A stretch of DNA of 64,000 bases, taken from IMG/VR virus record IMGVR_UViG_3300044846_004119, positions 113,136-177,135 of that record, one strand, 5' to 3'. Numbering within the stretch: position 1 is the stretch's first letter; every line of letters begins with the position of its first letter. The position numbers and the translations under genes are program-made. The notes under the pieces were generated by a model that saw nothing but the letters and a program-made list of their open reading frames with translations, was not told the DNA's origin and made no database searches. Shown here in pieces: positions 40,473 through 56,207 of this stretch. This DNA comes from a virus.

Positions 40473-41182
40473 AAACATGGAGAACAATAATAATGAGTGA
40501 TTTACATCTTGGTGCAAGACAATCACAAACAGACAATATTATTAAATTCTTGGAAGAGAATGAGTCTTTAATATTAATTTTAAATGGTGATATCATTGAT
40601 GGATGGGCACTTAAAAGTGGGGGGAAATGGAAAAAAGAATGTTCCAAGATATTCCGAAGATTTATGAAAAGAAGTGAGACAGGAACAAAAGTGGTTTATA
40701 TCAGAGGCAATCATGACGATTTCTTAAAACCATTCGTACCTTTCTTTATGAATAACATTCAAATCGTTAGGAAGTATATACACATTGGAGTTGATGGTAG
40801 AAAGTATTATTGTTTTCATGGTGATGTTCTTGACTTTGTTATTATGAAAGTAAGATGGTTGGCAGTACTTGGAGGGATATCTTATGACTTAGTAATCAAA
40901 TTGAATACGTTATATAATTTGATTAGGAGAAAGTTTAATCTACCTTATTATTCATTGGCGAATCATATCAAACAAAGTGTAAAGGGGGCAATTAATTTTG
41001 TGTCTGACTTTGAAGAAAACGCCAAAAGATTAACAAAAAGTAAAGATTGTGATGTTGCAGTATGTGGACATATCCACCAACCAAAATTAACTGAAGACTA
41101 TATGAATTCAGGTGATTTTTGTGAGAATTCAACTTGTTTAGTTGAAGACTTTAACGGTAATTGGAAAATACTAACATATTAA
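40463..41182 (+). CDS. LpxH-like metallophosphoesterase (UDP-2,3-diacylglucosamine hydrolase family)
   Basis: SDLHLG, NGDIIDGW, GNHD, HGD, GHIH, NSGDF. Confidence 0.88.
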   Translation: MDMKTWRTIIMSDLHLGARQSQTDNIIKFLEENESLILILNGDIIDGWALKSGGKWKKECSKIFRRFMKRSETGTKVVYIRGNHDDFLKPFVPFFMNNIQIVRKYIHIGVDGRKYYCFHGDVLDFVIMKVRWLAVLGGISYDLVIKLNTLYNLIRRKFNLPYYSLANHIKQSVKGAINFVSDFEENAKRLTKSKDCDVAVCGHIHQPKLTEDYMNSGDFCENSTCLVEDFNGNWKILTY

Positions 41183-41194
41183 GTATTTATTAAT

Positions 41195-41908
41195 ATGAGT
41201 AATTCAAAATCAAATAATCAATTAATTAATTTATTTTATTCAAAATATCTTAAAAAAATTAACGACATTAAAGGTTTAGTTTTTGACTCATCAATTAATG
41301 GTGATAATATTATAATCAATATTAGTAACCCAAATGATTTATCTTATAGTCCCGACGCTGTTGTTGGTTATTTTGAAGAAGTTGTTCATGACTTTAGTAA
41401 ATTTATAAATGGTGCGGAAACTGGTGGTAATCGTCTCTATAAAAATATTTCTGATAGTTTAATTATTTCCATAGATGGTGAATACGCTAAAAACATGAAT
41501 ATTGTTTATGATAAAAAATTTTACTTAAATAAACAAGATTTACGTAATGTTGAACATATATGTGACATGATTCGTGTATATAAAATTGATGAGTTTTGGT
41601 CCAAATGTAAAGTTACTTTTGAGAAAGCTTACGTTGAAAGTGGTGACGATATCGCACTTATTGAACTAAACGTTGTCTTATTGACACCTGAATGGGAAGG
41701 GCAACCTCTTAGAAATATGGGCATTTTAAGTGATAAAATTTCTGAAATGTCAGAAAATGAAAACTTCATTGACTATGAATACGAGTTCGCAAGTTCAGTT
41801 ACAAGTTTTTTTTGGAATAACCCATTAATGGTTGATAAGGATTATATGGGGACACAACCTGTACTTAATTTTTATACTCCAGAAGGAAAATTTATAAATT
41901 ATTGGTAA
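41195..41908 (+). CDS. Hypothetical protein
   Basis: TATTTAT at 41184. Confidence 0.78.
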   Translation: MSNSKSNNQLINLFYSKYLKKINDIKGLVFDSSINGDNIIINISNPNDLSYSPDAVVGYFEEVVHDFSKFINGAETGGNRLYKNISDSLIISIDGEYAKNMNIVYDKKFYLNKQDLRNVEHICDMIRVYKIDEFWSKCKVTFEKAYVESGDDIALIELNVVLLTPEWEGQPLRNMGILSDKISEMSENENFIDYEYEFASSVTSFFWNNPLMVDKDYMGTQPVLNFYTPEGKFINYW

Positions 41909-41928
41909 AAAAAAGGAATTATTCCCTT

Positions 41929-42216
41929 TTAGTTTAATTCTCCCCAAAGAACCTTATATTGTAAAGTGTCGACATGGTCAACTTTAACCGAGTCAATCAC
42001 TCGGTAAATGTTGTAACGATATTCATACTGTAATGTTTGAGTTTGACCATTCTTGTAATTCACAAAGTATGTGTTGTACAAGTTAGTGTCAACCTCAACT
42101 ACACTAACACTCGTTTGAGTATTTTTATCCGTTGACAGTGGCTTGAACCCTTTGCAAGAAGTTAACACTAAAAAAGATGCGATAACGCCGAATACTATTA
42201 AAACTATTTTTTTCAT
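41929..42216 (-). CDS. Small lipoprotein
   Basis: MKKIVLIVFGVIASFLVLTSC lipobox. Confidence 0.8.
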   Translation of the reverse strand: MKKIVLIVFGVIASFLVLTSCKGFKPLSTDKNTQTSVSVVEVDTNLYNTYFVNYKNGQTQTLQYEYRYNIYRVIDSVKVDHVDTLQYKVLWGELN

Positions 42217-42290
42217 ATCTTTAATTATTTATATTGCTAAGATACGCATTTATTCTTAAACTACAAACTATTTATTAAAAAAATTTAATC

Positions 42291-43415
42291 ATGAGCTATA
42301 AAAGATTCTTAATAAACGAATTAGAAAAGAAAGACATATTAAAACAATATGACTTATTAGTTGAAGTTGCAACAGTTGACCCTGAACCAGTGTCTACCCT
42401 AACTATAGATAAAAATGTTCAATTTCGTGGAGGTTATTGGAGTGAAACCTATTTACCAGAAACTTTAGGCCCCGAGATTGAAAAAGTTAAAAAATATTTA
42501 AGTAGTGGGGCTGGTAAAATATATTTAGTTAGTGTTACTATTGAATCAGGTGAATCTCAATTACCAAATGTTGACAATGAAAATGGTGGTAAGGCAGTTC
42601 CCCCACTTTATTTAGCGACAAAAAGAAATGAGTCAATTCAAAACTATATTACAACACAATTACAATCATTTGTTGACCAAAAACTATTAATTAGTTTACC
42701 TAAGTTTCAAGTTGCTCAACCTAAAATAGGCGCGACACCATTCCTTGGTGCACCATTTTGTCCTCAAGGAATGACTGATGTACAACAAAGAAATGTATGT
42801 GTTAAAAAATATAGAGAGGGTAAAACCACTATATATAAAACTGATTATGCTGACAAATATTTAACGGAACAATATGTTCGGGTAATTTTAAAGTTAGAAG
42901 AACTAACGGGCATGAAAAAGTGTTTAGATAATATGGTTATTGAAGTTAATTATACTGATTTATCTAAAAAACATGTATGTAATAGTGCTATTTACGAAAT
43001 ATCATTAAACGATGTTAAACTATTTAGAGATGATAAAAAACCATATGCAAGTTTAAATAACAATTATAATAAGGCTAAAAACTATCCAGGGATTGATGTA
43101 TACGATAACACTAAAGTTGTTGGTGGTAAAAGATTTAATAAATTTATAATAACACCTGAAATTGCTAGTCAGATATTAATTCAAACTATTGGTAAAAACG
43201 GAGCTGAAAAACCATCATTTATTTTAAAAGCGAAATGTCTTAACCCATTCAATAATACAGACTGGAATGGAGGATGTCATAAAGGTGTTGGTAATATTGT
43301 GGTTACGAATGGACAAAAAGAAGTTTTCAATTATATATCCGCAACTCCTAACGCTAAAGATGAGGTTAAAAATTTGGCGACATTCAATGCTTGTGGTAGT
43401 GGTAAAGCACAATAA
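42291..43415 (+). CDS. Leader-tagged hypothetical protein
   Basis: FLINE..LLVE leader; TATTTAT at 42269. Confidence 0.8.
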   Translation: MSYKRFLINELEKKDILKQYDLLVEVATVDPEPVSTLTIDKNVQFRGGYWSETYLPETLGPEIEKVKKYLSSGAGKIYLVSVTIESGESQLPNVDNENGGKAVPPLYLATKRNESIQNYITTQLQSFVDQKLLISLPKFQVAQPKIGATPFLGAPFCPQGMTDVQQRNVCVKKYREGKTTIYKTDYADKYLTEQYVRVILKLEELTGMKKCLDNMVIEVNYTDLSKKHVCNSAIYEISLNDVKLFRDDKKPYASLNNNYNKAKNYPGIDVYDNTKVVGGKRFNKFIITPEIASQILIQTIGKNGAEKPSFILKAKCLNPFNNTDWNGGCHKGVGNIVVTNGQKEVFNYISATPNAKDEVKNLATFNACGSGKAQ

Positions 43416-43417
43416 AA

Positions 43418-43834
43418 ATGACAGACGATTTAATTGCGTACCCAAGCTCATTTATGCCTAAATTGAATATTAACGTAATCTTCAAGGAGAACCCTAATTA
43501 CCCACAAATGAAAGAATATTTTAATATGATGGGTTATGGTTTTCTTGCTCCCGAATTTAAAACAATTTTCTTAGATGGTGAAAACTTTATTGGTGAAAAC
43601 GCATTCACCTTTGACGATATGAAATTCGTTGAGGCTCATGAAGTGTCTCATCTTATATTAGGACATAATGGTCCTCGTTCAGAAGAAGATGAGATTGAGG
43701 CCGACTTAGGTGCGTACATTCTACTAACTAAATATAATATGTCAACAGAACGATTGAAGGACGAGTTTGAACACAGACACGGAGTTCCTTTTTCTGAAGA
43801 ATTATTGGATAAAGTAAATGATAGAATGTTATGA
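43418..43834 (+). CDS. Zincin-like metallopeptidase domain protein
   Basis: HEVSH followed by EIEAD. Confidence 0.65.
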   Translation: MTDDLIAYPSSFMPKLNINVIFKENPNYPQMKEYFNMMGYGFLAPEFKTIFLDGENFIGENAFTFDDMKFVEAHEVSHLILGHNGPRSEEDEIEADLGAYILLTKYNMSTERLKDEFEHRHGVPFSEELLDKVNDRML

Positions 43835-44314: not shown

Positions 44315-44395
44315 ATGGATAAATTAATTATTGCTCTCACATTATGGTTTTGTATTGTTTATTTCGGTAGAAGTAAGAAAAAGTACGAAGATTAA
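44315..44395 (+). CDS. 26-aa TM microprotein
   Basis: MDKLIIALTLWFCIVYFGRSKKKYED; own TATCTTTG at 44303. Confidence 0.55.
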   Translation: MDKLIIALTLWFCIVYFGRSKKKYED

Positions 44396-44481
44396 CTTCA
44401 ACTGAATATCTAATTCATTTTCCATCCAACAAAGATAAGAAAATAGTTGTTATAAACAAAATAATATTCTATCTTTGCTAT

Positions 44482-45102
44482 GTGGAAGGATACATTTATT
44501 TAGGACAGTACTATGACGTGTTAGGGAGAGAGTTGAATCTATCTGATAAGAAGATAGGATTTTCAATCGACCCTGTCAGTAGAGAATATCAATTAAATAG
44601 GACAAAATCTCCCATAGGTTACTCGATTATCTCTGTTTTTAAGGTAGACAATATGAATAAGGTAGAAAAGATGTTACATGCAATCTTAGACAGTCGTAGA
44701 GTATTTGGTGAGTGGTTTAAAGATGATGAAGATACTTTAACAGGTGAGTTCATTAACTTCATGATTGCTTACGGTGGAACAACATGCGATACCACAGAAC
44801 TCAAACAAAGTCGTGAGACGGTAGAACTAACACCTGACAATAGATTAGTTGATGTTGCTAATAATTTTGGCCAAGATAAAATGTTAATTAGAACTTATAT
44901 GGGGATTGATTATGATGTATTACTTAACACCAAAGGTATGTTAGTTTTTAATGGTGAGCAGTTTGACACCCCAAATAAATTATACAACAACGGTGTTGTC
45001 AAGTTTGTTAAAGGTAAGAAAGGTAACAGTGGGACTAATAACTTATCTCAATTTAAAATTAAAGAAACAGGTGAGCGATTAGTTGACACCGTAATAGAAT
45101 GA
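44482..45102 (+). CDS. GIY-YIG (T5orf172-type) nuclease with RAMA-like C-terminal domain
   Basis: GYIYL..KIGFS..R..VEKMLH..GEWF; C-terminal GMLVFNGEQFDTPNKL; GTG start. Confidence 0.7.
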   Translation: MEGYIYLGQYYDVLGRELNLSDKKIGFSIDPVSREYQLNRTKSPIGYSIISVFKVDNMNKVEKMLHAILDSRRVFGEWFKDDEDTLTGEFINFMIAYGGTTCDTTELKQSRETVELTPDNRLVDVANNFGQDKMLIRTYMGIDYDVLLNTKGMLVFNGEQFDTPNKLYNNGVVKFVKGKKGNSGTNNLSQFKIKETGERLVDTVIE

Positions 45103-47983: not shown

Positions 47984-48523
47984 ATGAAAAAACTAAAACT
48001 ATTATTAAGTGCTCTACTACTATTGGGCACAACTAACACATTCTCACAAAACAACACAATTGAAGGCAAATGGAAAATGCTAAACTTCAACAATACGATG
48101 TTTATTTTTGAAAATGGTGAACGATTTACTTATTATTGTACAGCAGGAAATTGTGATTCTTTATACAACACCTTTGAGGCTGGAGATGGTAATCACATTC
48201 CAGGAACAGAAGAGTATACTGTGACTAACGATACAATTACTATGGATTACAATTTTGGAAATATCTTAGTTACTAGTATGGTATTTAGTTGTGAAGGAAA
48301 CATTGTCACATTCGTTGACCAAAATAATTTGAATTATGTTCGTTTAGGAACTAATCTTAACGACTGTAATTCGGCATCACTTACTGAACAAACTCAAAAT
48401 TCATTATTAATGGATAACAAATACTATGACTTATTAGGTAGAGAAATTAAAGACATAGCAACATACTCATTTAATTCTCTTTACATCAAGAACGGTAAAA
48501 AATATATTAAAACTCAACAATAA
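47984..48523 (+). CDS. Secreted protein with T9SS-type C-terminal domain
   Basis: Sec signal ending FS|Q; C-terminal YYDLLGREI..YIKNGKKYIK. Confidence 0.7.
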   Translation: MKKLKLLLSALLLLGTTNTFSQNNTIEGKWKMLNFNNTMFIFENGERFTYYCTAGNCDSLYNTFEAGDGNHIPGTEEYTVTNDTITMDYNFGNILVTSMVFSCEGNIVTFVDQNNLNYVRLGTNLNDCNSASLTEQTQNSLLMDNKYYDLLGREIKDIATYSFNSLYIKNGKKYIKTQQ

Positions 48524-48525
48524 CT

Positions 48526-49542
48526 ATGAAAAACTTAAAATTATTATTACTTACGTTACTAAGCGTAATATCTTTTAACTTGTTCTCACAGACACAAGTT
48601 TACACAACAAACACATCGGGACCAAACATTTGTGATGGTACTGCGGTATTGGACACAACCAATATTAATATGACATCAATCTATTGGCAAGGAATGGGGA
48701 TGATTATTAATCAGGGAAGTTACATTGTAACAAACCTTTGTCCTGGTACATACGGTGTTACATTCATCAGTAACGGAACTTCGGTTACATTAACGTTTAT
48801 CGTCATGGCAGGAAACTTTAATCCATGTTTAAACTTCGGTGGGTTTATAACACCAACAAACTCTGTTGACTCCACAACTTGTGATGGTATTGTAACGGCA
48901 ACAGTAACAGGAGGACAAGCACCATACACATATCTATGGAGTAATGGTAATATGCTTCAGACAATCGATAACTTATGTCCTGGCACATATTGTTGTTATG
49001 TTACGGACTCATACGGTTGCACAATAACATTATGTGATACAATAGGAGTTCAATCTTCAAACTACGGAGATACATTATATATAACAAATGCGGGGATGTG
49101 CAATCTTCCTATTGGTACATTAGTTTCAACAATAGAAGATTGTAAATTAAATTATAATTCTATTGGTGGTGCATTTATTTCAGATGTCACACCAATATCA
49201 GATACTCTTAATATTGTAATGGTTACTTGGATACTTGTAGATACTAATGGTTTTAATGTGTCTACACCTCAGTATCAAACATATACATATATTCCTACAG
49301 TAGGATGTTATAACTTACAATTAATTATATTTTGTTATCAAAAATCTATGAACTATAACACTATCGTTATAAATCAAAATTGGTACGTAGGGTTCGCAGG
49401 TATTAATGAACTATCAGGTAATGGTAAACAACTTATCAGTGTGGTAGATTTAATGGGTAAAGAAACAAATATACAACCAAACAAACATTTAATCTATACA
49501 TACAGTGATGGTTCTAAAGATATAAGATACATTAAAGAATAA
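48526..49542 (+). CDS. Secreted SprB-repeat protein with T9SS-type C-terminal domain
   Basis: Signal ending FS|Q; CDG..TATVTGGQAPYTYLWSNG..NLCPGTY; C-terminal GINEL..VVDLMGKET..IYTYSDGS. Confidence 0.8.
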   Translation: MKNLKLLLLTLLSVISFNLFSQTQVYTTNTSGPNICDGTAVLDTTNINMTSIYWQGMGMIINQGSYIVTNLCPGTYGVTFISNGTSVTLTFIVMAGNFNPCLNFGGFITPTNSVDSTTCDGIVTATVTGGQAPYTYLWSNGNMLQTIDNLCPGTYCCYVTDSYGCTITLCDTIGVQSSNYGDTLYITNAGMCNLPIGTLVSTIEDCKLNYNSIGGAFISDVTPISDTLNIVMVTWILVDTNGFNVSTPQYQTYTYIPTVGCYNLQLIIFCYQKSMNYNTIVINQNWYVGFAGINELSGNGKQLISVVDLMGKETNIQPNKHLIYTYSDGSKDIRYIKE

Positions 49543-49563: not shown

Positions 49564-49593
49564 AAAGGGAGACTCCATTCGGGTCTCCTTTTT
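49564..49593 (+). terminator. Rho-independent terminator
   Basis: GGAGAC-9nt-GTCTCC plus T-run. Confidence 0.7.
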
Positions 49594-49834: not shown

Positions 49835-49841
49835 TATTTAT
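49835..49841 (+). promoter_or_regulatory. Putative phage late promoter core TATTTAT
   Basis: Representative of more than 25 copies, mostly 5-25 nt upstream of starts, always on the coding strand. Confidence 0.65.
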
Positions 49842-49845
49842 TAAT

Positions 49846-50415
49846 ATGAACCTACAAGAATCCATAAGAAGAGTATTAAGAGAGGAAACTCAGATACCTT
49901 CATCAATTAGAAGAAGGGTAAGCTATTCGGATATCGAAGAGGCGTTTCTAAATGCGTTAGATTCAATTGATTATTCTCGATTACACAATCAATTCTCACC
50001 AATAAAGAATATATCGTTAAAGACATTTGCTAAACTTGTTATAGATGAACTGAATATGTATTTAGAGCAAGACTATTTTAGTGACGAGAATAGGATTTAT
50101 TTTGATGACGAAACATATCACGAAAAAATTAGAGTTCCACTTATGAATTATTTTGGTAATAGAATTAAAAAAAGATATAATAGTGATGAATCAGAAGAAG
50201 AATTAACAGAAAAGTGGTCACAAAAGTATAAAAAATCTATCAACTGCAATAACCCAAAAGGATTTAGTCAAAGAGCTCATTGTCAAGGTAAGGGTAAACA
50301 TAGTGAGATGAAAGAAGGTGAGATAACCGAAAAATGTTGGGCAGGATATACTCAAAAAGGTATGAAGACAATGTTTGGTAAGAGATACCCTAATTGTGTT
50401 AAGAAGACAAAATAA
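49846..50415 (+). CDS. MNLQE-leader protein: RRR domain plus two Cys-pair microdomains
   Basis: LTE-KWSQKYKKSINCNNPKGFSQRAHC; ITE-KCWAGY..YPNCVK. Confidence 0.8.
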   Translation: MNLQESIRRVLREETQIPSSIRRRVSYSDIEEAFLNALDSIDYSRLHNQFSPIKNISLKTFAKLVIDELNMYLEQDYFSDENRIYFDDETYHEKIRVPLMNYFGNRIKKRYNSDESEEELTEKWSQKYKKSINCNNPKGFSQRAHCQGKGKHSEMKEGEITEKCWAGYTQKGMKTMFGKRYPNCVKKTK

Positions 50416-50416
50416 T

Positions 50417-51193
50417 ATGAATTTACAAGAAAACATACAAAGAATAAGAGAAATGATGATTTCTGAGGAGATGGTTCAATCAGACGCTTGGAAATCAATC
50501 AAACAAACTTTAGATATCCTTAAAGATAAGAAAAAAGTATTACTACTGAGTTGCTCCAACAGGTATAATTTTGATGAAAAGAATATAGACATACCAAAGT
50601 CTAAAATGATTGCAATGTACTTGAACGATGAGTTGGGTAATAAGTCAGTATTAATTGATGTCCCTGAACTTAAAATACTTCCTTGTGAAGGTAATGTATC
50701 AAGAAAAGATGGTAACTCTTGCGGGTTATTAAAAGCCGCTCTTAAAGATAAGAAAAAGAACCCATCAGGAGACCACAGATGTTGGGTTAACATTAACGAA
50801 CCTTCAGATGAGTTATGGAAGATATCAAAAGAGTTATTTGAGTCCGATGCGGTGATATTTTTTAGTTCAATAAGATGGGGACAAACAAATATGTATTACC
50901 AAAACTTAATTGAAAGATTAAATTGGTTGGAGAATAGACACACAACATTGGGTGAAGCCAACATTATCAAAGATATTGAAACAGGATTCATTTGTGTGGG
51001 TCAGAATTGGAATGGAGAAACCGTAACCAAAACACAAAAAGAAGTACACGAGTTTTATGGTTTCAAACCAAATAATGATTTGTATTGGAATTGGCAATAT
51101 ACCAAAGATAAGAATGACGAGACACAAAAATCATATAAAGCGTCACATAATAAATTTATAAAGGATACTAAACTTCCTGAAATAAAAGAGTAA
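50417..51193 (+). CDS. MNLQE-leader flavodoxin-like (FMN reductase / iron-sulfur flavoprotein family) protein
   Basis: Start moved to 50417; KVLLLSCSNR, PCEGNVS..SC, SDAVIFFSSIRWG..LIERL. Confidence 0.75.
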   Translation: MNLQENIQRIREMMISEEMVQSDAWKSIKQTLDILKDKKKVLLLSCSNRYNFDEKNIDIPKSKMIAMYLNDELGNKSVLIDVPELKILPCEGNVSRKDGNSCGLLKAALKDKKKNPSGDHRCWVNINEPSDELWKISKELFESDAVIFFSSIRWGQTNMYYQNLIERLNWLENRHTTLGEANIIKDIETGFICVGQNWNGETVTKTQKEVHEFYGFKPNNDLYWNWQYTKDKNDETQKSYKASHNKFIKDTKLPEIKE

Positions 51194-51852
51194 TGAACCT
51201 ACAAGAAAACATACAAAGGATTAAACAAATGATGGGACTTCTTACAGAAGAAGAAAAGTCTTATGAAAGTAAACCAATTGTCTTTGTTGGAACTGCGGGT
51301 AGTGGGAAATCTACTACCGCTAAAGCTTTGTCCGAAAAATTGGGAATACCACGTATTGATGTGGATGAAATGGAAGGTAGTGAAGAATATGAAAAATTGT
51401 GTAAGGATGAACCTGGTGTGGAAGTAAATATAGTAAGAACTTCAGATGGTCATAATTATGGTGAAACAAATGATGAATACAAAAGATGTGTTCTTACTAA
51501 ACTATTGGATAAATATGGTAATGATAAAGTAATTTTTGATATAGGTGGGGACAGTATAAAAAATCCTGACTTATTAGAAGATTTACCAAATCTATTTGTT
51601 TTTGGATTGCCAACAACACCTGAAGACGATAGACCATATATCCAATTTCTAAAACAAAGGAGAATTAAAAGGGCAACAGAAATGGGTCAAACTAATTTAG
51701 AGGATAAAACAAAAGACGAAGACATACAACAATCAATTAATAGTATTAGAGAATTTTATAAAGGTAAAACAACTATCAATCCACGTAATGAAAACGGGGA
51801 AAGTAAAACAACGGATGAATTAGTTGATGAGGTAATATTTAAACTTACATAA
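51193..51852 (+). CDS. MNLQE-leader P-loop kinase (shikimate/NMP-kinase-like)
   Basis: IVFVGTAGSGKSTTAKALSEKLGIPRIDVD, VIFDIGG. Confidence 0.8.
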   Translation: MNLQENIQRIKQMMGLLTEEEKSYESKPIVFVGTAGSGKSTTAKALSEKLGIPRIDVDEMEGSEEYEKLCKDEPGVEVNIVRTSDGHNYGETNDEYKRCVLTKLLDKYGNDKVIFDIGGDSIKNPDLLEDLPNLFVFGLPTTPEDDRPYIQFLKQRRIKRATEMGQTNLEDKTKDEDIQQSINSIREFYKGKTTINPRNENGESKTTDELVDEVIFKLT

Positions 51853-51853
51853 T

Positions 51854-52678
51854 ATGAACCTACAAGAAAACATATCAAGAATTAAATCAATGATGGGACT
51901 TCTTACAGAAGAAGAAATAAAACAAGAAATACCTTATGGTATCATAAAGTTTAGTGATAATAAAATATTGGTTGGTGATATGCACCAAACACCTTTAGAA
52001 CTACCTGATGAATGGGTTGAAAAAATTGTTAATGTTGCAAACGATAAAGGATATTATGGTGAAGGTATTGGACTTAAACATAATGAAGCGGTTACAAAAT
52101 CAAATTTTTATCATTTATTAAACCCAAAAAAGGAAATTGGTTCTTGGGATGAAAAATTAATTGAAAGTGGTGAAGTTCCGAAAGATAAAGAATATGTTTT
52201 TTTATATGCGTTATTCTCTAATCCAAAAGAGAATCGTAGATTAGAAAAGTTATTAAATAATATTGATGATGGTGATACCATATTTAATGTTCTTTTAAAA
52301 ACAATACCTGATTGGTCGGCGGATATGGGTAAATTTAATTTGGGTGAGAGAGAATTAACAAAGTTCCTTGAAGAAATTAGTGAACAAAATCATAATTTTA
52401 TTGAAATGTCCAAACAAGATGCAACTGAAGAGAATTTATCTAATTTTTTAGACGTAGGTGAAAAATTACAATGGCCATCAACAGAAAAAAATCCAAATTT
52501 ATGGCAACAATATCCTCATATGGCGGGTAAGTTTGCAAGAATAGCAACAACCATCAGAGACCAATTTTTAATAAACTCCGGACCTGGCGTTTATTTTGTC
52601 GGTGCGGGACATTTGAAAGATATTGTAGAAATGCCCGAAGGTAACAAATTAAATTTAATTGGAGGAGAAAAAATATGA
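51854..52678 (+). CDS. MNLQE-leader protein, TraB/TIKI/EreA-like fold candidate
   Basis: ILVGDMH..GEG..IRDQFL..YFVGAGHL. Confidence 0.5.
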   Translation: MNLQENISRIKSMMGLLTEEEIKQEIPYGIIKFSDNKILVGDMHQTPLELPDEWVEKIVNVANDKGYYGEGIGLKHNEAVTKSNFYHLLNPKKEIGSWDEKLIESGEVPKDKEYVFLYALFSNPKENRRLEKLLNNIDDGDTIFNVLLKTIPDWSADMGKFNLGERELTKFLEEISEQNHNFIEMSKQDATEENLSNFLDVGEKLQWPSTEKNPNLWQQYPHMAGKFARIATTIRDQFLINSGPGVYFVGAGHLKDIVEMPEGNKLNLIGGEKI

Positions 52679-53034
52679 ACCTACAAGAGAACATAAAAAG
52701 GATTAGAGAAATGATGAATCTGAATGAGTCAGATAAAAATAAGATTTGGTTATTAAGAAGACTGGAAACCCAAGATATAAAAGGTTACCTAGATGAACAA
52801 ATTGATAGTTTAACCAATCAAATTAGTCCTTGTGGTTATAGTACATTTGAAGATTATAAAGATATAATTTTTGAAGTTGCAGGAGCTAATTTTATTAATC
52901 ATTTTAGTGATGAACTTTATGTTAAACATGAAATGTCAGAAATTGAAGAAATTATATGGCACTTATTAACTAAAAAATATGGTAATTACCTTATAAATCA
53001 ATTTGACGGTAGAATCTGTGATGATGAGTATTAA
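52675..53034 (+). CDS. MNLQE-leader RRR-family protein
   Basis: MNLQENIKRIREMMNLNE then WLLRRLE. Confidence 0.8.
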   Translation: MNLQENIKRIREMMNLNESDKNKIWLLRRLETQDIKGYLDEQIDSLTNQISPCGYSTFEDYKDIIFEVAGANFINHFSDELYVKHEMSEIEEIIWHLLTKKYGNYLINQFDGRICDDEY

Positions 53035-53035
53035 T

Positions 53036-55030
53036 ATGAACCTACAAGAGAACATAAAAAGAATATTAAGGGAAGAAAGAAAACTTTCTAATTTTCTTAG
53101 AAGAAGATTGGAAATGTTGGATTATGAGGTTGAACGATTTAATAAATGGGGAGGTCATAATATATGTATATTTTTTAAAAGTGATATAGAATATTTTGAA
53201 ACAATTATGGAGAATGCAATTGATGCTATGTATTATAATTATTTTTCTCATATGGATGATAATTCAGGAGAATGGGCTCATGAATATCTTGATATGGTTA
53301 ATTATATTAGAGAAAACTACCAAAACAAAATAATGAAACATTACGATGATAATTGTGGTTCAGGTTTAAGTTCTATAAAAGAATCAACATTCTTTCGTAG
53401 AAGGGTTGATATGAGTTTAATAAATAAAGAATTCTTTGAAAATTTAAATATTATTACCGATGTTTATTTAAAAAAATATAATGAGGGGATAAATTTTAAT
53501 TTTGAAACCTTTGAACATCATCTCATACATTATCTTATGGATGGGTATCATGGTGAATTATCTAATGACGATTATGATAATTTCCCATATGATGAGGTTT
53601 ATAATTTTCTTTTAAATTATTTTCATGATAAGATTAAAGATAGATATGACACTTTTTTTGGTAATAAAATTAACGAATCAGTTGACAAATCTGAAGACAA
53701 AAAACTTAAGTTGGTTAAGGATATTATATATAACATGTTTGATGATATTATTGATTTAGAATATCACACTGAAAGAAATGAGATTATGGTTTACTATGAT
53801 AAACAAGAAGAATTAGAGAGTTCAGAAATATGTGATATTATAAATGATTTTACCGGTTTAAATGTTGTTCCTTGGTATGTTTATGATAAACGAGTAGAAT
53901 TAAAAAAGGAACCTGATTTTTATATAGATACTGAAAGATATGAGGAAGAGATTTATGAAAATTATAGTCCTGCTGGTAAAGAAATAACTCCAAACAAAAT
54001 TGTTATACATAAATCTAATCCTAAGTTCAGAGACAAGATTATAGAACAAGGATTAAAAGTTCGTGCTGGTGAATGTTATAAAATATATGCAGGATATGGA
54101 ACAAAATGTAAACCTGCAATATTTGCAACCAACTCAACAAATAAGAGATCGTGGTTTGATTCTACTTATGATGATGATGTTTGGGAAATTGATACAACAA
54201 TGATGCCCGAAATCAAATGGTATAAGGATAGACACTACGAATCAAGTAAAAAACATATAGTAACCTTTCAAGACATACCTAAAGAGGCAATCAAACTTAT
54301 TTATGAAGGTTCAGGTAAAGATGGGGGAATAATGGAATCAGTTGACAAATCTGAAGACAAAAAACTTAAGTTGGTTACAAAAATGATTCATAAGTTTTTT
54401 GATGATGTTAGTTTTATTGATATTAAAAAATATGAAAATAAACCAATGATAACAGTTTATTTTGATAACTATGAATATGCTGGTAATGAAGAGACTTATT
54501 TTGCCGAACAAATACAAAGTAAAATATATGAATATACAGGTATTAAACTTATTCCGTATTGGCACACTATTCAGTATAACACTGACGCAGATTTTCGTTT
54601 GGATGCCATTAAACTAAAATACGATAACGAAGGAAATGTTATAAACGAATCAGAAGATAAACTTAATATATTACTTAACCGTCACTTTGATGAGGTATTT
54701 GATAATCTAACATTGGTAATAGATAATGGTGGTTATTGTAGGTGGTTTTTTAATGATGAAGATATACCTGAAGATGACCATGATGATGATAGTGTTTTCA
54801 GTAAAAATCTTGCGGGTACTCTTTGGGTTCAGAACTGTGATGAGTTTAGAAAATTAGTTGATGTTAGGACTTATTTATCACTAAGCGCCCATGAGATTAA
54901 GATAAAATTAATGAGATACATAAACAATAGATACGAAGAACAATTCTTAGAAGGTTTTTTCGGAAAAGATGGATTTGTTAAAATTGTAGATAGTCATCAT
55001 TGTGTAGACTTATATGGTTTATTACCTTAA
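53036..55030 (+). CDS. MNLQE-leader six-module putative polyprotein incl. ART-like domain
   Basis: Start moved to 53036; junctions IKES, INES, IYEN, IMES, INES. Confidence 0.8.
   Translation: MNLQENIKRILREERKLSNFLRRRLEMLDYEVERFNKWGGHNICIFFKSDIEYFETIMENAIDAMYYNYFSHMDDNSGEWAHEYLDMVNYIRENYQNKIMKHYDDNCGSGLSSIKESTFFRRRVDMSLINKEFFENLNIITDVYLKKYNEGINFNFETFEHHLIHYLMDGYHGELSNDDYDNFPYDEVYNFLLNYFHDKIKDRYDTFFGNKINESVDKSEDKKLKLVKDIIYNMFDDIIDLEYHTERNEIMVYYDKQEELESSEICDIINDFTGLNVVPWYVYDKRVELKKEPDFYIDTERYEEEIYENYSPAGKEITPNKIVIHKSNPKFRDKIIEQGLKVRAGECYKIYAGYGTKCKPAIFATNSTNKRSWFDSTYDDDVWEIDTTMMPEIKWYKDRHYESSKKHIVTFQDIPKEAIKLIYEGSGKDGGIMESVDKSEDKKLKLVTKMIHKFFDDVSFIDIKKYENKPMITVYFDNYEYAGNEETYFAEQIQSKIYEYTGIKLIPYWHTIQYNTDADFRLDAIKLKYDNEGNVINESEDKLNILLNRHFDEVFDNLTLVIDNGGYCRWFFNDEDIPEDDHDDDSVFSKNLAGTLWVQNCDEFRKLVDVRTYLSLSAHEIKIKLMRYINNRYEEQFLEGFFGKDGFVKIVDSHHCVDLYGLLP
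53675..54377 (+). repeat. 43-bp exact direct repeat at module junctions
   Basis: gaatcagttgacaaatctgaagacaaaaaacttaagttggtta at 53675-53717 and 54335-54377. Confidence 0.95.
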
Positions 55031-55358: not shown

Positions 55359-56207
55359 ATGGAAAAAATAGGAGTTATAGGACAGGGGTTTGTAGGAAAT
55401 TCAGTTAAAGAAGGAATGAAGAATTATTTTGATGTAAGAACATACGATACCAATGGTAATTGCAATGAACCTTCTTTAAAAAGTTTAATTGAAAATGTAA
55501 ATGAGTTATTTCTTTGTGTACCTACTCCAATGAGAAAATCGGGTGAATGTGATTTATCAATTGTAAAAGAATGTTTACAAGATATTTTAAGTATAGTTGA
55601 GTATTACCAAAAAGAAAATTTTATAGTAATACTCAAGTCAACTATTCCACCGGGAACTACAGAAAAATTAAACCAAGAATTTAAAAATATCCACATCGCT
55701 TTTAATCCGGAATTTTTAACTGAGGCAAATGCTGTTGAGGATTATAAAAACCAAAATAGAATAATTATAGGAGCCGATAGACCATACTCTTCAAGGATAA
55801 AACAGATATTTTCAAAAGCATTTCCAAAAGTGCCTATTATTAAAACATCCTCAACCATAGCTGAAACAATTAAATATGTTACAAATACATTTTTATCAAT
55901 GAAAGTTTCATATGCAAATGAGATATATCAATTATGTAATACTTTAGAAATTGATTATGATAAGGTAATTGAATATGCTAGATACGATGATAGGTTAGGC
56001 AATTCACATTGGTCGGTTCCAGGACCCGATGGTGATTTAGGATTTGGTGGTCATTGTTTTCCTAAAGATATCGCGGCTTTGCAATATTTAATGAAAACAC
56101 TAAATGTTGATTCAACAATGTTAGATTCGACTATTACAAAAAATGAAATGGTACGAACAGATAAAGATTGGGAAAAACAAATCGGACGGGCTGTCTCAAA
56201 AAACTAA
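55359..56207 (+). CDS. ugd: UDP-glucose/GDP-mannose dehydrogenase family, lacking the C-terminal domain
   Basis: GVIGQGFVG, CVPTP, KSTIPPGT, NPEFLTE, GFGGHCFPKD; only 282 aa. Confidence 0.88.
   Translation: MEKIGVIGQGFVGNSVKEGMKNYFDVRTYDTNGNCNEPSLKSLIENVNELFLCVPTPMRKSGECDLSIVKECLQDILSIVEYYQKENFIVILKSTIPPGTTEKLNQEFKNIHIAFNPEFLTEANAVEDYKNQNRIIIGADRPYSSRIKQIFSKAFPKVPIIKTSSTIAETIKYVTNTFLSMKVSYANEIYQLCNTLEIDYDKVIEYARYDDRLGNSHWSVPGPDGDLGFGGHCFPKDIAALQYLMKTLNVDSTMLDSTITKNEMVRTDKDWEKQIGRAVSKN

Follow-up and report, generated by a model that had tools for sequence, protein, structure and literature searches.

Six consecutive genes in a 64,000-nucleotide stretch of viral DNA (here the window, the last 64 kb of the 177-kb IMG/VR record IMGVR_UViG_3300044846_004119, CheckV completeness 60%) were found to encode unrelated proteins that share one short N-terminal leader, MNLQE(N/S)IxR(I/V). 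The leader is a modular N-terminal element under selection as a peptide, it carries a conserved cut motif, and the phage lineage that bears it encodes a head protease. Judging by its sequence, we lean, without great confidence, towards reading the leader as a modular address-and-cut tag of the kind of the capsid-targeting sequence (CTS) of phage T4, greatly expanded.

The six open reading frames (starts 49846, 50417, 51193, 51854, 52675 and 53036) lie head to tail on the + strand between 49846 and 55030, with stops and starts that touch or overlap, and every one begins with the leader, as the sequence-only reading of this DNA had said. A degenerate DNA pattern for the first seven codons occurs at exactly these six sites in the window, with 0 expected from 100 shuffles, and both a looser protein motif and a leader profile found these six genes only over the whole 177-kb record. 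The DNA blocks described as common to genes 51193 and 51854 are real, with 92% identity over 64 nucleotides followed by complete divergence; the leaders of 49846 and 53036 are 86% identical in DNA over 50 nucleotides, 7 nucleotides upstream included. Past the leader the six proteins cannot be aligned, except for an Arg-rich ('RRR') module in 49846, 52675 and 53036.

The proposal that the leader is a portable module is supported by leader swapping within one cargo family, by a detached helix with a disordered linker, and by complete bacterial domains placed right behind it. In the AlphaFold2 model of gene 51854 (mean predicted local distance difference test score, pLDDT, 90.9), residues 3-13 form a helix (pLDDT ~67), residues 15-23 fall below 50, and a confident cargo starts from about residue 26, with pLDDT roughly 85-98 in ten-residue blocks from residue 31. 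A weaker model of gene 50417 has the same layout of helix, linker and cargo. Among leader-bearing cargoes with known domains, position 2 of the DUF2237 profile falls at residue 20 and Pterin_4a runs from residue 19, while strand 1 of the gene 51193 kinase (residues 26-29) aligns with residues 3-5 of adenylate and shikimate kinases. Both the models and the domain starts place the leader outside the cargo folds rather than as an integral part of them.

Exchange of leaders was seen directly in the orthologues of gene 51854 (47-99% identical, with the same invariant residues), in which at least four leaders precede one core: the MNLQENI, MKYLKTY (MKYLKTYxxFE), MIKLLDL and ...FNxFVIKE types, with a hydrophobic-x-Glu in each. 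The MKYLKTY type has K-T-Y-x-x-F, then L-x-E, in common with MKTYQEFIAE of T4 IPII/IPIII, a likeness too short for statistics. Furthermore, in G003, the closest complete relative (318 kb), the Arg-rich module and the part-4 module of gene 53036 stand behind a different leader, MK(I/V)IITE.... The suggestion that leaders were captured by recombination was borne out in part, by DNA-level signs of exchange between neighbouring leaders (86-92% identity).

The leader is widespread. An exact-pattern scan of IMG/VR found it in at least 119 stretches, many on 200 to 320-kb contigs, from which 133 non-redundant leader proteins were listed; past residue 22 these form at least 55 cargo groups unlinked by BLAST, or 70 with profile hits added. 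The leader profile, which has 30 columns and was built from one leader per cargo family, picked out, from 1.84 billion proteins of public metagenomes, at least 495 cluster representatives at E ≤ 1e-3. Among the 150 top-scoring profile hits, the leader stands at residue 1-2 in 138 and within the first 45 residues in the other 12, and about 9% of G003 genes bear one of the leader types. Past the ten residues fixed by the pattern, conservation goes on with K/R, E/Q/S, M/V, M, G and L/I/V to about residue 16 and then fades. Synonymous codon use is varied (CTA/TTA 57/56, GAA/GAG 70/49, AGA/AGG 77/39, all four Gly codons), and since synonymous sites vary freely, the constraint is on the leader peptide and not on DNA or RNA. 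Pfam, PHROGs and NCBIfam hold no match to the leader itself and little for most cargoes, and full-text searches of the literature, made with the leader string and for capsid-targeting tags of huge phages, turned up no earlier account of it.

Other N-terminal leader types, MK(I/L)IITESQ-like and ...RLTExDL...(K/R)RVIxE-like, were observed on unrelated window genes (15272, 21086, 28486, 31744, 37020, 37394, 46818, 47265, 47584, 59469, 60530, 63444 and 63860), the MK(I/L)IITESQ-like leader being present on 24 G003 genes.

The end of the leader carries the motif that would be cut. [IL]-x-E with its Glu at positions 13-24 was found in 44 of 53 cargo families (83%), compared with 15% for equal windows inside the cargoes; all six window genes end their leader in it, and L-N-E and I-N-E are the commonest leader-end tripeptides. 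In T4, the CTS of IPI, IPII and IPIII and the short propeptides of Alt, gp24, gp22 and gp21 are removed by the prohead protease gp21 (PMC9026906, PMC3012670), which cuts targeting peptides and other propeptides after (L/I)-x-E (PMC9026906). Within the T4 IPIII leader, residues 4 and 7 are important to targeting, 8 and 10 to cutting (PMC9026906). Exchanging the Glu at the end of a T4 leader for Asp stops processing and leaves targeting intact (PMC9026906).

A prohead protease was not found in the 60%-complete record itself, while Peptidase_S77 is present in all 9 of the leader-bearing records that are at least 90% complete, the S77-less fragments being 36-71% complete. In G003, where the sheath shares 79% identity with the record's along its full length, there is a T4-like head block comprising large terminase, portal, S77 protease, an acidic scaffold-like protein and the capsid protein. 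The protease (43090-43815) is 36% identical to T4 gp21, with identical ELNHP and SSRGxGS stretches, and the capsid protein aligns with T4 gp23 at E 4e-25. In this alignment ...FLINE↓A of the relative falls on the gp23 cleavage site ...FLTE65↓A (the arrow marks the cut, known for gp23 after residue 65 and predicted elsewhere), and the tripeptide there is of the same [IL]-x-E type as the leader ends. Two further stretches were observed in the head proteins of G003. An acidic head-module protein (52495-53808, − strand) has a leader-like N-terminal stretch E-K-I-Q-R-I-M-E...N-E followed by P-I-N-E↓S, which is a lead and not a finding because it ranks only 5th-6th of 413 N termini. The scaffold-like protein (41145-42695, − strand) ends L-I-E↓S-K-T-Y-E-N, which recalls both the K-T-Y leader and the T4 CTS.

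Gene 53036 combines the leader with six modules joined at I-x-E, the junction codons lying at 53375-53383, 53669-53677, 53951-53959, 54329-54337 and 54641-54649 on the + strand. Module 2 is 44% identical to a stand-alone 112-residue leader protein and module 4 is 52% identical to stand-alone leader proteins of 144 to 147 residues; their junctions (I-K-E↓S and I-Y-E↓N) align with the leader ends of the stand-alone forms, the helix part being lost. At the remaining junctions the sequence is I-N-E↓S, I-M-E↓S and I-N-E↓S, two of these lying in an 83-nucleotide repeat. Among the features of the fused forms, it is solely the survival of I-x-E where the leader has otherwise decayed that speaks for a cut site. 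An internal leader copy stands between modules in at least 13 of the best 150 profile hits, its Met replaced in 10 copies and kept in 3. One of these fused proteins, P0274, joins a homologue of gene 53036 module 1 to a homologue of gene 49846, and RNA-library contigs of two lake runs contain the same fusion, with the joint 53378 to 49856. Joints in metatranscriptome contigs were also observed to begin or end at leader positions (49842-49856, 51190-51193, 53040-53053 and 53378), with other gene orders and fusions, which suggests that related strains carry leader cassettes in different arrangements.

Among the genes of the record are those for a contractile tail sheath like that of T4 and for a baseplate wedge, as well as SbcC-like genes. 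Its upstream regions are AT-rich and without a Shine-Dalgarno sequence, and the stretch is present in lake-water runs, 18 DNA runs containing at least 70% of it; both features agree with placement among freshwater Bacteroidota phages. In G003 (L151), a putative ribosomal protein bS21-like gene of 67 residues lies at 44393-44596 on the + strand, opposite in strand, between the protease and portal genes inside the head block. Chen et al. 2022 (PMC9723584) described jumbo phages of freshwater Bacteroidetes that are marked out by a bS21 gene, and this putative gene fits that group. By capsid protein, the closest named Bacteroidota-infecting phage is Flavobacterium phage immuto (40% identity); an uncultured phage record and Microcystis phage Mel-JY01 rank slightly above it.

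The context of expression was approached through the motif TATTTAT. The 8-mers that hold it are about 10-fold enriched in the upstream regions of genes, and it precedes 56 of the 194 genes of the record. These include most genes with a leader and also genes for fibre, baseplate, sheath and tube; the 56 exclude annotated replication and nucleotide-metabolism genes (SbcC-like, reductase-like), a pattern noted with no systematic tally made. Its preferred distance to the ATG is 4-5 or 13-17 nucleotides (for example in the window regions 49835-49841, 37394, 47584 and 60530). At the cluster the promoter-like copy at 49835-49841 (+ strand) stands 4 nucleotides before the first ATG; if it is a -10-like element, the transcripts would be almost leaderless. 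A terminator-like hairpin with a U-run at 49564-49592 (+ strand) lies 3' of the upstream gene (-16 kcal/mol, z -4.7, 0 of 200 shuffles as good), and the predicted hairpin and TATTTAT together would separate the cluster as a transcription unit of its own. A scan with consensus sigma-70 and terminator models proved uninformative and missed this hairpin, which was later confirmed by folding. In G003, TATTTAT precedes the portal, protease and scaffold-like genes and heads leader-gene operons. This sharing, taken as a motif count and not as a transcript map, fits co-expression of the leader genes with virion genes. All six genes are represented in metatranscriptome contigs; being already assembled, these RNA runs carry no transcript starts, strand or levels.

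The cargoes of the cluster, all on the + strand, differ widely. Gene 1 (49846-50415, 189 residues) consists of the leader (residues 1-13, ...ILRE type), the Arg-rich module and a Cys-containing C-terminal module. The latter (residues ~106-189; 50160-50412) recurs, up to 84% identical, in hypothetical proteins from 35 records of T4-like cyanophages, one 50-nucleotide stretch having 90% DNA identity to Synechococcus phage SynMITS9220M01, and a tblastn search of the gene against cultured-phage records gave matches through this module only; it looks like a mobile mini-module common to distant T4-like phages. Gene 2 (50417-51193, 258 residues) carries the leader (residues 1-17, ending I-S-E) and a flavodoxin-like cargo of the flavin mononucleotide (FMN) reductase type. 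The flavodoxin-like fold, proposed earlier, was recovered by Foldseek as a match to WrbA/AzoR/SsuE-type FMN reductases at E ~2e-4 with a low-confidence model (mean pLDDT 62.6); the PDB matches down to at least rank 50 are FMN/flavodoxin-like reductases (E from 1.8e-4, TM-score 0.45-0.5). The product name given by the Joint Genome Institute is 'multimeric flavodoxin WrbA', and Pfam and NCBIfam hold no match for the gene. This cargo family was observed to be hugely abundant, with 3388 related clusters at 90% identity; the best 120 of these 3388 relatives are 77-96% identical, compared with 52-79% for the sheath among the compared genomes.

Gene 3 (51193-51852, 219 residues) has the leader at residues 1-19, ending L-T-E, and a P-loop kinase-like cargo whose first strand starts from residues 26-29. 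The kinase assignment draws support from a Walker A motif and from Pfam AAA_18/SKI and NCBIfam kinase matches, which lie below cut-offs and span only about residues 26-75. Gene 4 (51854-52678, 274 residues) has the same leader span and ending, and its cargo carries the residues GxxH...E...R...GxGH, invariant in 25 homologues. For the TraB/TIKI-like domain that had been proposed, the best likeness is ChaN 2g5g (Z 3.9, root-mean-square deviation 5.4, 147 aligned), tied with unrelated structures; Pfam and a Foldseek search of the PDB gave no match, a wide structural search (VIA) stayed below Z 5, and the cargo is possibly TIKI/ChaN-like. Gene 5 (52675-53034, 119 residues) joins the leader (residues 1-18, ending L-N-E) to a small 'RRR'-type helical module, and gene 6 (53036-55030, 664 residues) is the multi-module protein described above, with its leader at residues 1-13. 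Two leader-bearing cargoes gave sub-threshold matches to ART-PolyVal, the class of T4 Alt.

Around the cluster, a UDP-glucose/GDP-mannose dehydrogenase gene (55359-56207, + strand; Pfam E 5e-25, PHROG E 1e-53) lies directly 3'. Upstream, the genes at 47984-48523 and 48526-49542 (+ strand) have signal-peptide-like starts and C-terminal tails resembling Bacteroidota type IX secretion sorting domains, a reading of the tails for which NCBIfam gave no match in either gene; in the second, Pfam also recognises an SprB repeat (E 6e-8), and PHROGs give a weak Hoc-like match.

If the leader is an address-and-cut tag, its amphipathic helix (residues ~3-13) would dock the new protein to the prohead scaffolding core, the [IL]-x-E at its end, placed in a flexible linker, would be cut by a gp21-type (S77) prohead protease, and the cargo would thereby be set free within the head. 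A single leader would load the whole polyprotein encoded by gene 53036, or by another fused form of its kind, and the modules would then be separated at the I-x-E junctions. Near-identical leader DNA would act as a recombination handle through which tandem arrays gain and lose cargoes. The steps that we infer are attachment to the prohead core, cutting by the prohead protease, presence of cargo in virions and delivery to the host. Capsid targeting with gp21-type removal is consistent with the cut motif, the predicted capsid site, the protease of the relatives and the polyprotein junctions; injection of the cargo into the host would be purely conjectural.

Several observations weigh against the tag. 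The head module was not found in the 177-kb, 60%-complete record, and because the record is without it, the evidence for an S77 protease comes from relatives only. PF03420 and PF07068 were unmatched in the record, a search that alone cannot show absence because 14 control genomes also gave no match and the record is only 60% complete. The leader was not found in the cultured phages searched: neither gene 51854 nor gene 50417 matched any of 50,697 cultured-phage records by tblastn, and the leader profile had no match in Flavobacterium phage immuto. Four of the six predicted mature proteins are acidic (isoelectric point 4.5-5.0), unlike the internal proteins of T4, which are basic. An FMN-reductase-like protein, a kinase and a pterin dehydratase are housekeeping-like and not obvious as cargo for injection, and leaders on about 9% of a relative's genes are many for head contents. 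[IL]-x-E is a short motif, the conservation of which is in part mere leader homology, and the internal leaders of fused open reading frames are weak evidence for cleavage, because fusion of tandem genes yields them automatically. Finally, TATTTAT is no proof of late expression because it stands before a quarter of all genes.

Other explanations account for parts of these data. The leader might be a modular helix that docks the protein not to the prohead but to some different partner, for example a hub protein of phage or host, a chaperone, or a further assembly that the phage builds. It would then stay on the protein, its terminal Glu being part of a linker rather than a cut site. The amphipathic helix detached from the cargo agrees with this, as does the fact that many cargoes are ordinary enzymes and most mature parts acidic. 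Such docking, however, accounts neither for the strictness of the hydrophobic-x-E end nor for the match between that end and the predicted maturation site of the capsid protein, and it leaves unexplained both the I-x-E at junctions where the helix has decayed and the T4-CTS-like alternative leader on the same cargo; we regard it as unlikely. Less likely still is an expression or recombination cassette, in which the promoter-like motif, the start and the first codons would suit translation that lacks Shine-Dalgarno sequences and is modified by phage bS21, the peptide being functionless. TATTTAT 4 nucleotides before the ATG at the head of leader-gene operons, the AT-rich upstream regions without Shine-Dalgarno sequences, the 86-92% DNA identity of neighbouring leaders, the putative bS21 gene of the lineage (PMC9723584) and the similar action of promoter/stem-loop cassettes (PeSL) in T4-type phages (PMC2839356, PMC4122927) all favour it. 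Against a functionless peptide, residues are kept while synonymous sites vary, variants retain the amphipathic pattern, in-frame internal copies without a start codon keep the peptide, and the conserved stretch, which ends in Glu, extends to about residue 16-19.

Systems for ribosomally synthesized and post-translationally modified peptides are likewise built with one short leader in front of many unrelated proteins, and the leader could by analogy be the recognition sequence of a modifying enzyme, with one radical-SAM maturase serving many precursors. Yet Radical_SAM (PF04055) was absent from the record and from four relatives at least 98% complete, the control being positive in 14 of 14 genomes, so that this explanation is given very little credence. 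Equally improbable is that the genes are ordinary paralogues, specific to the lineage, with the N-terminal helix belonging to a fold that all of them share. The Arg-rich module that follows the leader in 49846, 52675 and 53036 would be expected of such a family, but the cargo folds are unrelated (FMN-reductase-like, P-loop kinase, Pterin_4a, DUF2237) and fall into 55-70 BLAST-unlinked groups; for the whole set, paralogy is refuted by the unrelated folds.

The address-and-cut reading places the leader beside several known systems. Like the T4 CTS, it is an N-terminal peptide of 10 to 19 residues on otherwise unrelated proteins and ends in (L/I)-x-E; like T4, the lineage, to judge by its relatives, combines an S77 protease of the gp21 type with a capsid protein of the gp23 type and a scaffold-like protein that is acidic, and the first ten residues of T4 gp24 resemble the ...ILRE end of the leader. 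Unlike the T4 CTS, to which the MNLQENI leader bears a general likeness and no significant sequence match, the tag is used on a far larger scale, with several leader types on about 9% of G003 genes and at least 495 clusters for the MNLQENI type. Also unlike the T4 CTS, the cargoes, known here from sequence alone, would include 20 to 30-kDa enzymes and multi-module polyproteins with mostly acidic mature parts. Polymorphic internal-protein loci of T-even phages were reportedly described by Repoila et al. in 1994. In these ip loci the proteins are diverse and the CTS alone is conserved (PMC3012670), and the present cluster is similar in its tandem fast-changing genes, its leader as the sole common part and its leader DNA as a plausible recombination site; it differs in its lineage, which fits the bS21-encoding freshwater Bacteroidota jumbo phages (PMC9723584), and in its several interchangeable leaders and fused polyproteins.

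In the phiKZ-like giant phages 201phi2-1 and SPN3US, head and ejection proteins are processed by a gp21-related protease (PMC5694885, PMC7411985, PMC10052503). The likeness to these lies in giant phages loading many head proteins with propeptides trimmed after Glu, as is proposed here. Unlike the present case, phiKZ-like phages have no described single short exchangeable leader, and their processing is proven by mass spectrometry. The phiKZ-like cleavage sites are (S/A/G)-x-E. PeSL cassettes, in turn, mediate modular shuffling in the hyperplastic regions of T4-type phages (PMC2839356, PMC4122927). As with PeSL, short conserved elements stand at gene starts in variable regions as plausible sites of cassette exchange, and a hairpin and a promoter-like motif precede the cluster; unlike PeSL, the repeated element extends into the coding sequence and is conserved as a peptide.

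The idea of such a tag is itself not new, since T-even internal proteins are diverse and have the CTS alone in common (PMC3012670, PMC9026906). What is new is the lineage in which it occurs, together with the variety of interchangeable leaders, the scale, cargoes as large as enzymes, and polyproteins jointed at I-x-E. It is conceivable, and only somewhat short of an even chance, that a family of ~300-kb freshwater Bacteroidota phages uses a few interchangeable peptides to pack the capsid with about a tenth of its gene products, among them enzymes and multi-module polyproteins, and that the head protease releases them there. If that is true, the capsid would deliver a ready-made and rapidly reshuffled protein kit, the contents of which could be read from sequence. 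If the tags act as in T4, sequence could be enough to predict which proteins thousands of uncultured giant phages package, and probably inject, and hundreds of unknown cargo families would be open to study as early host-takeover or counter-defence proteins. The T4 CTS has already been used to load foreign proteins into heads, and these short natural tags and cut sites could likewise load foreign proteins into phage heads. In conclusion, if the reading is true, the capsid-targeting principle, known from a few small T-even proteins, would scale to enzymes and cleavable polyproteins.

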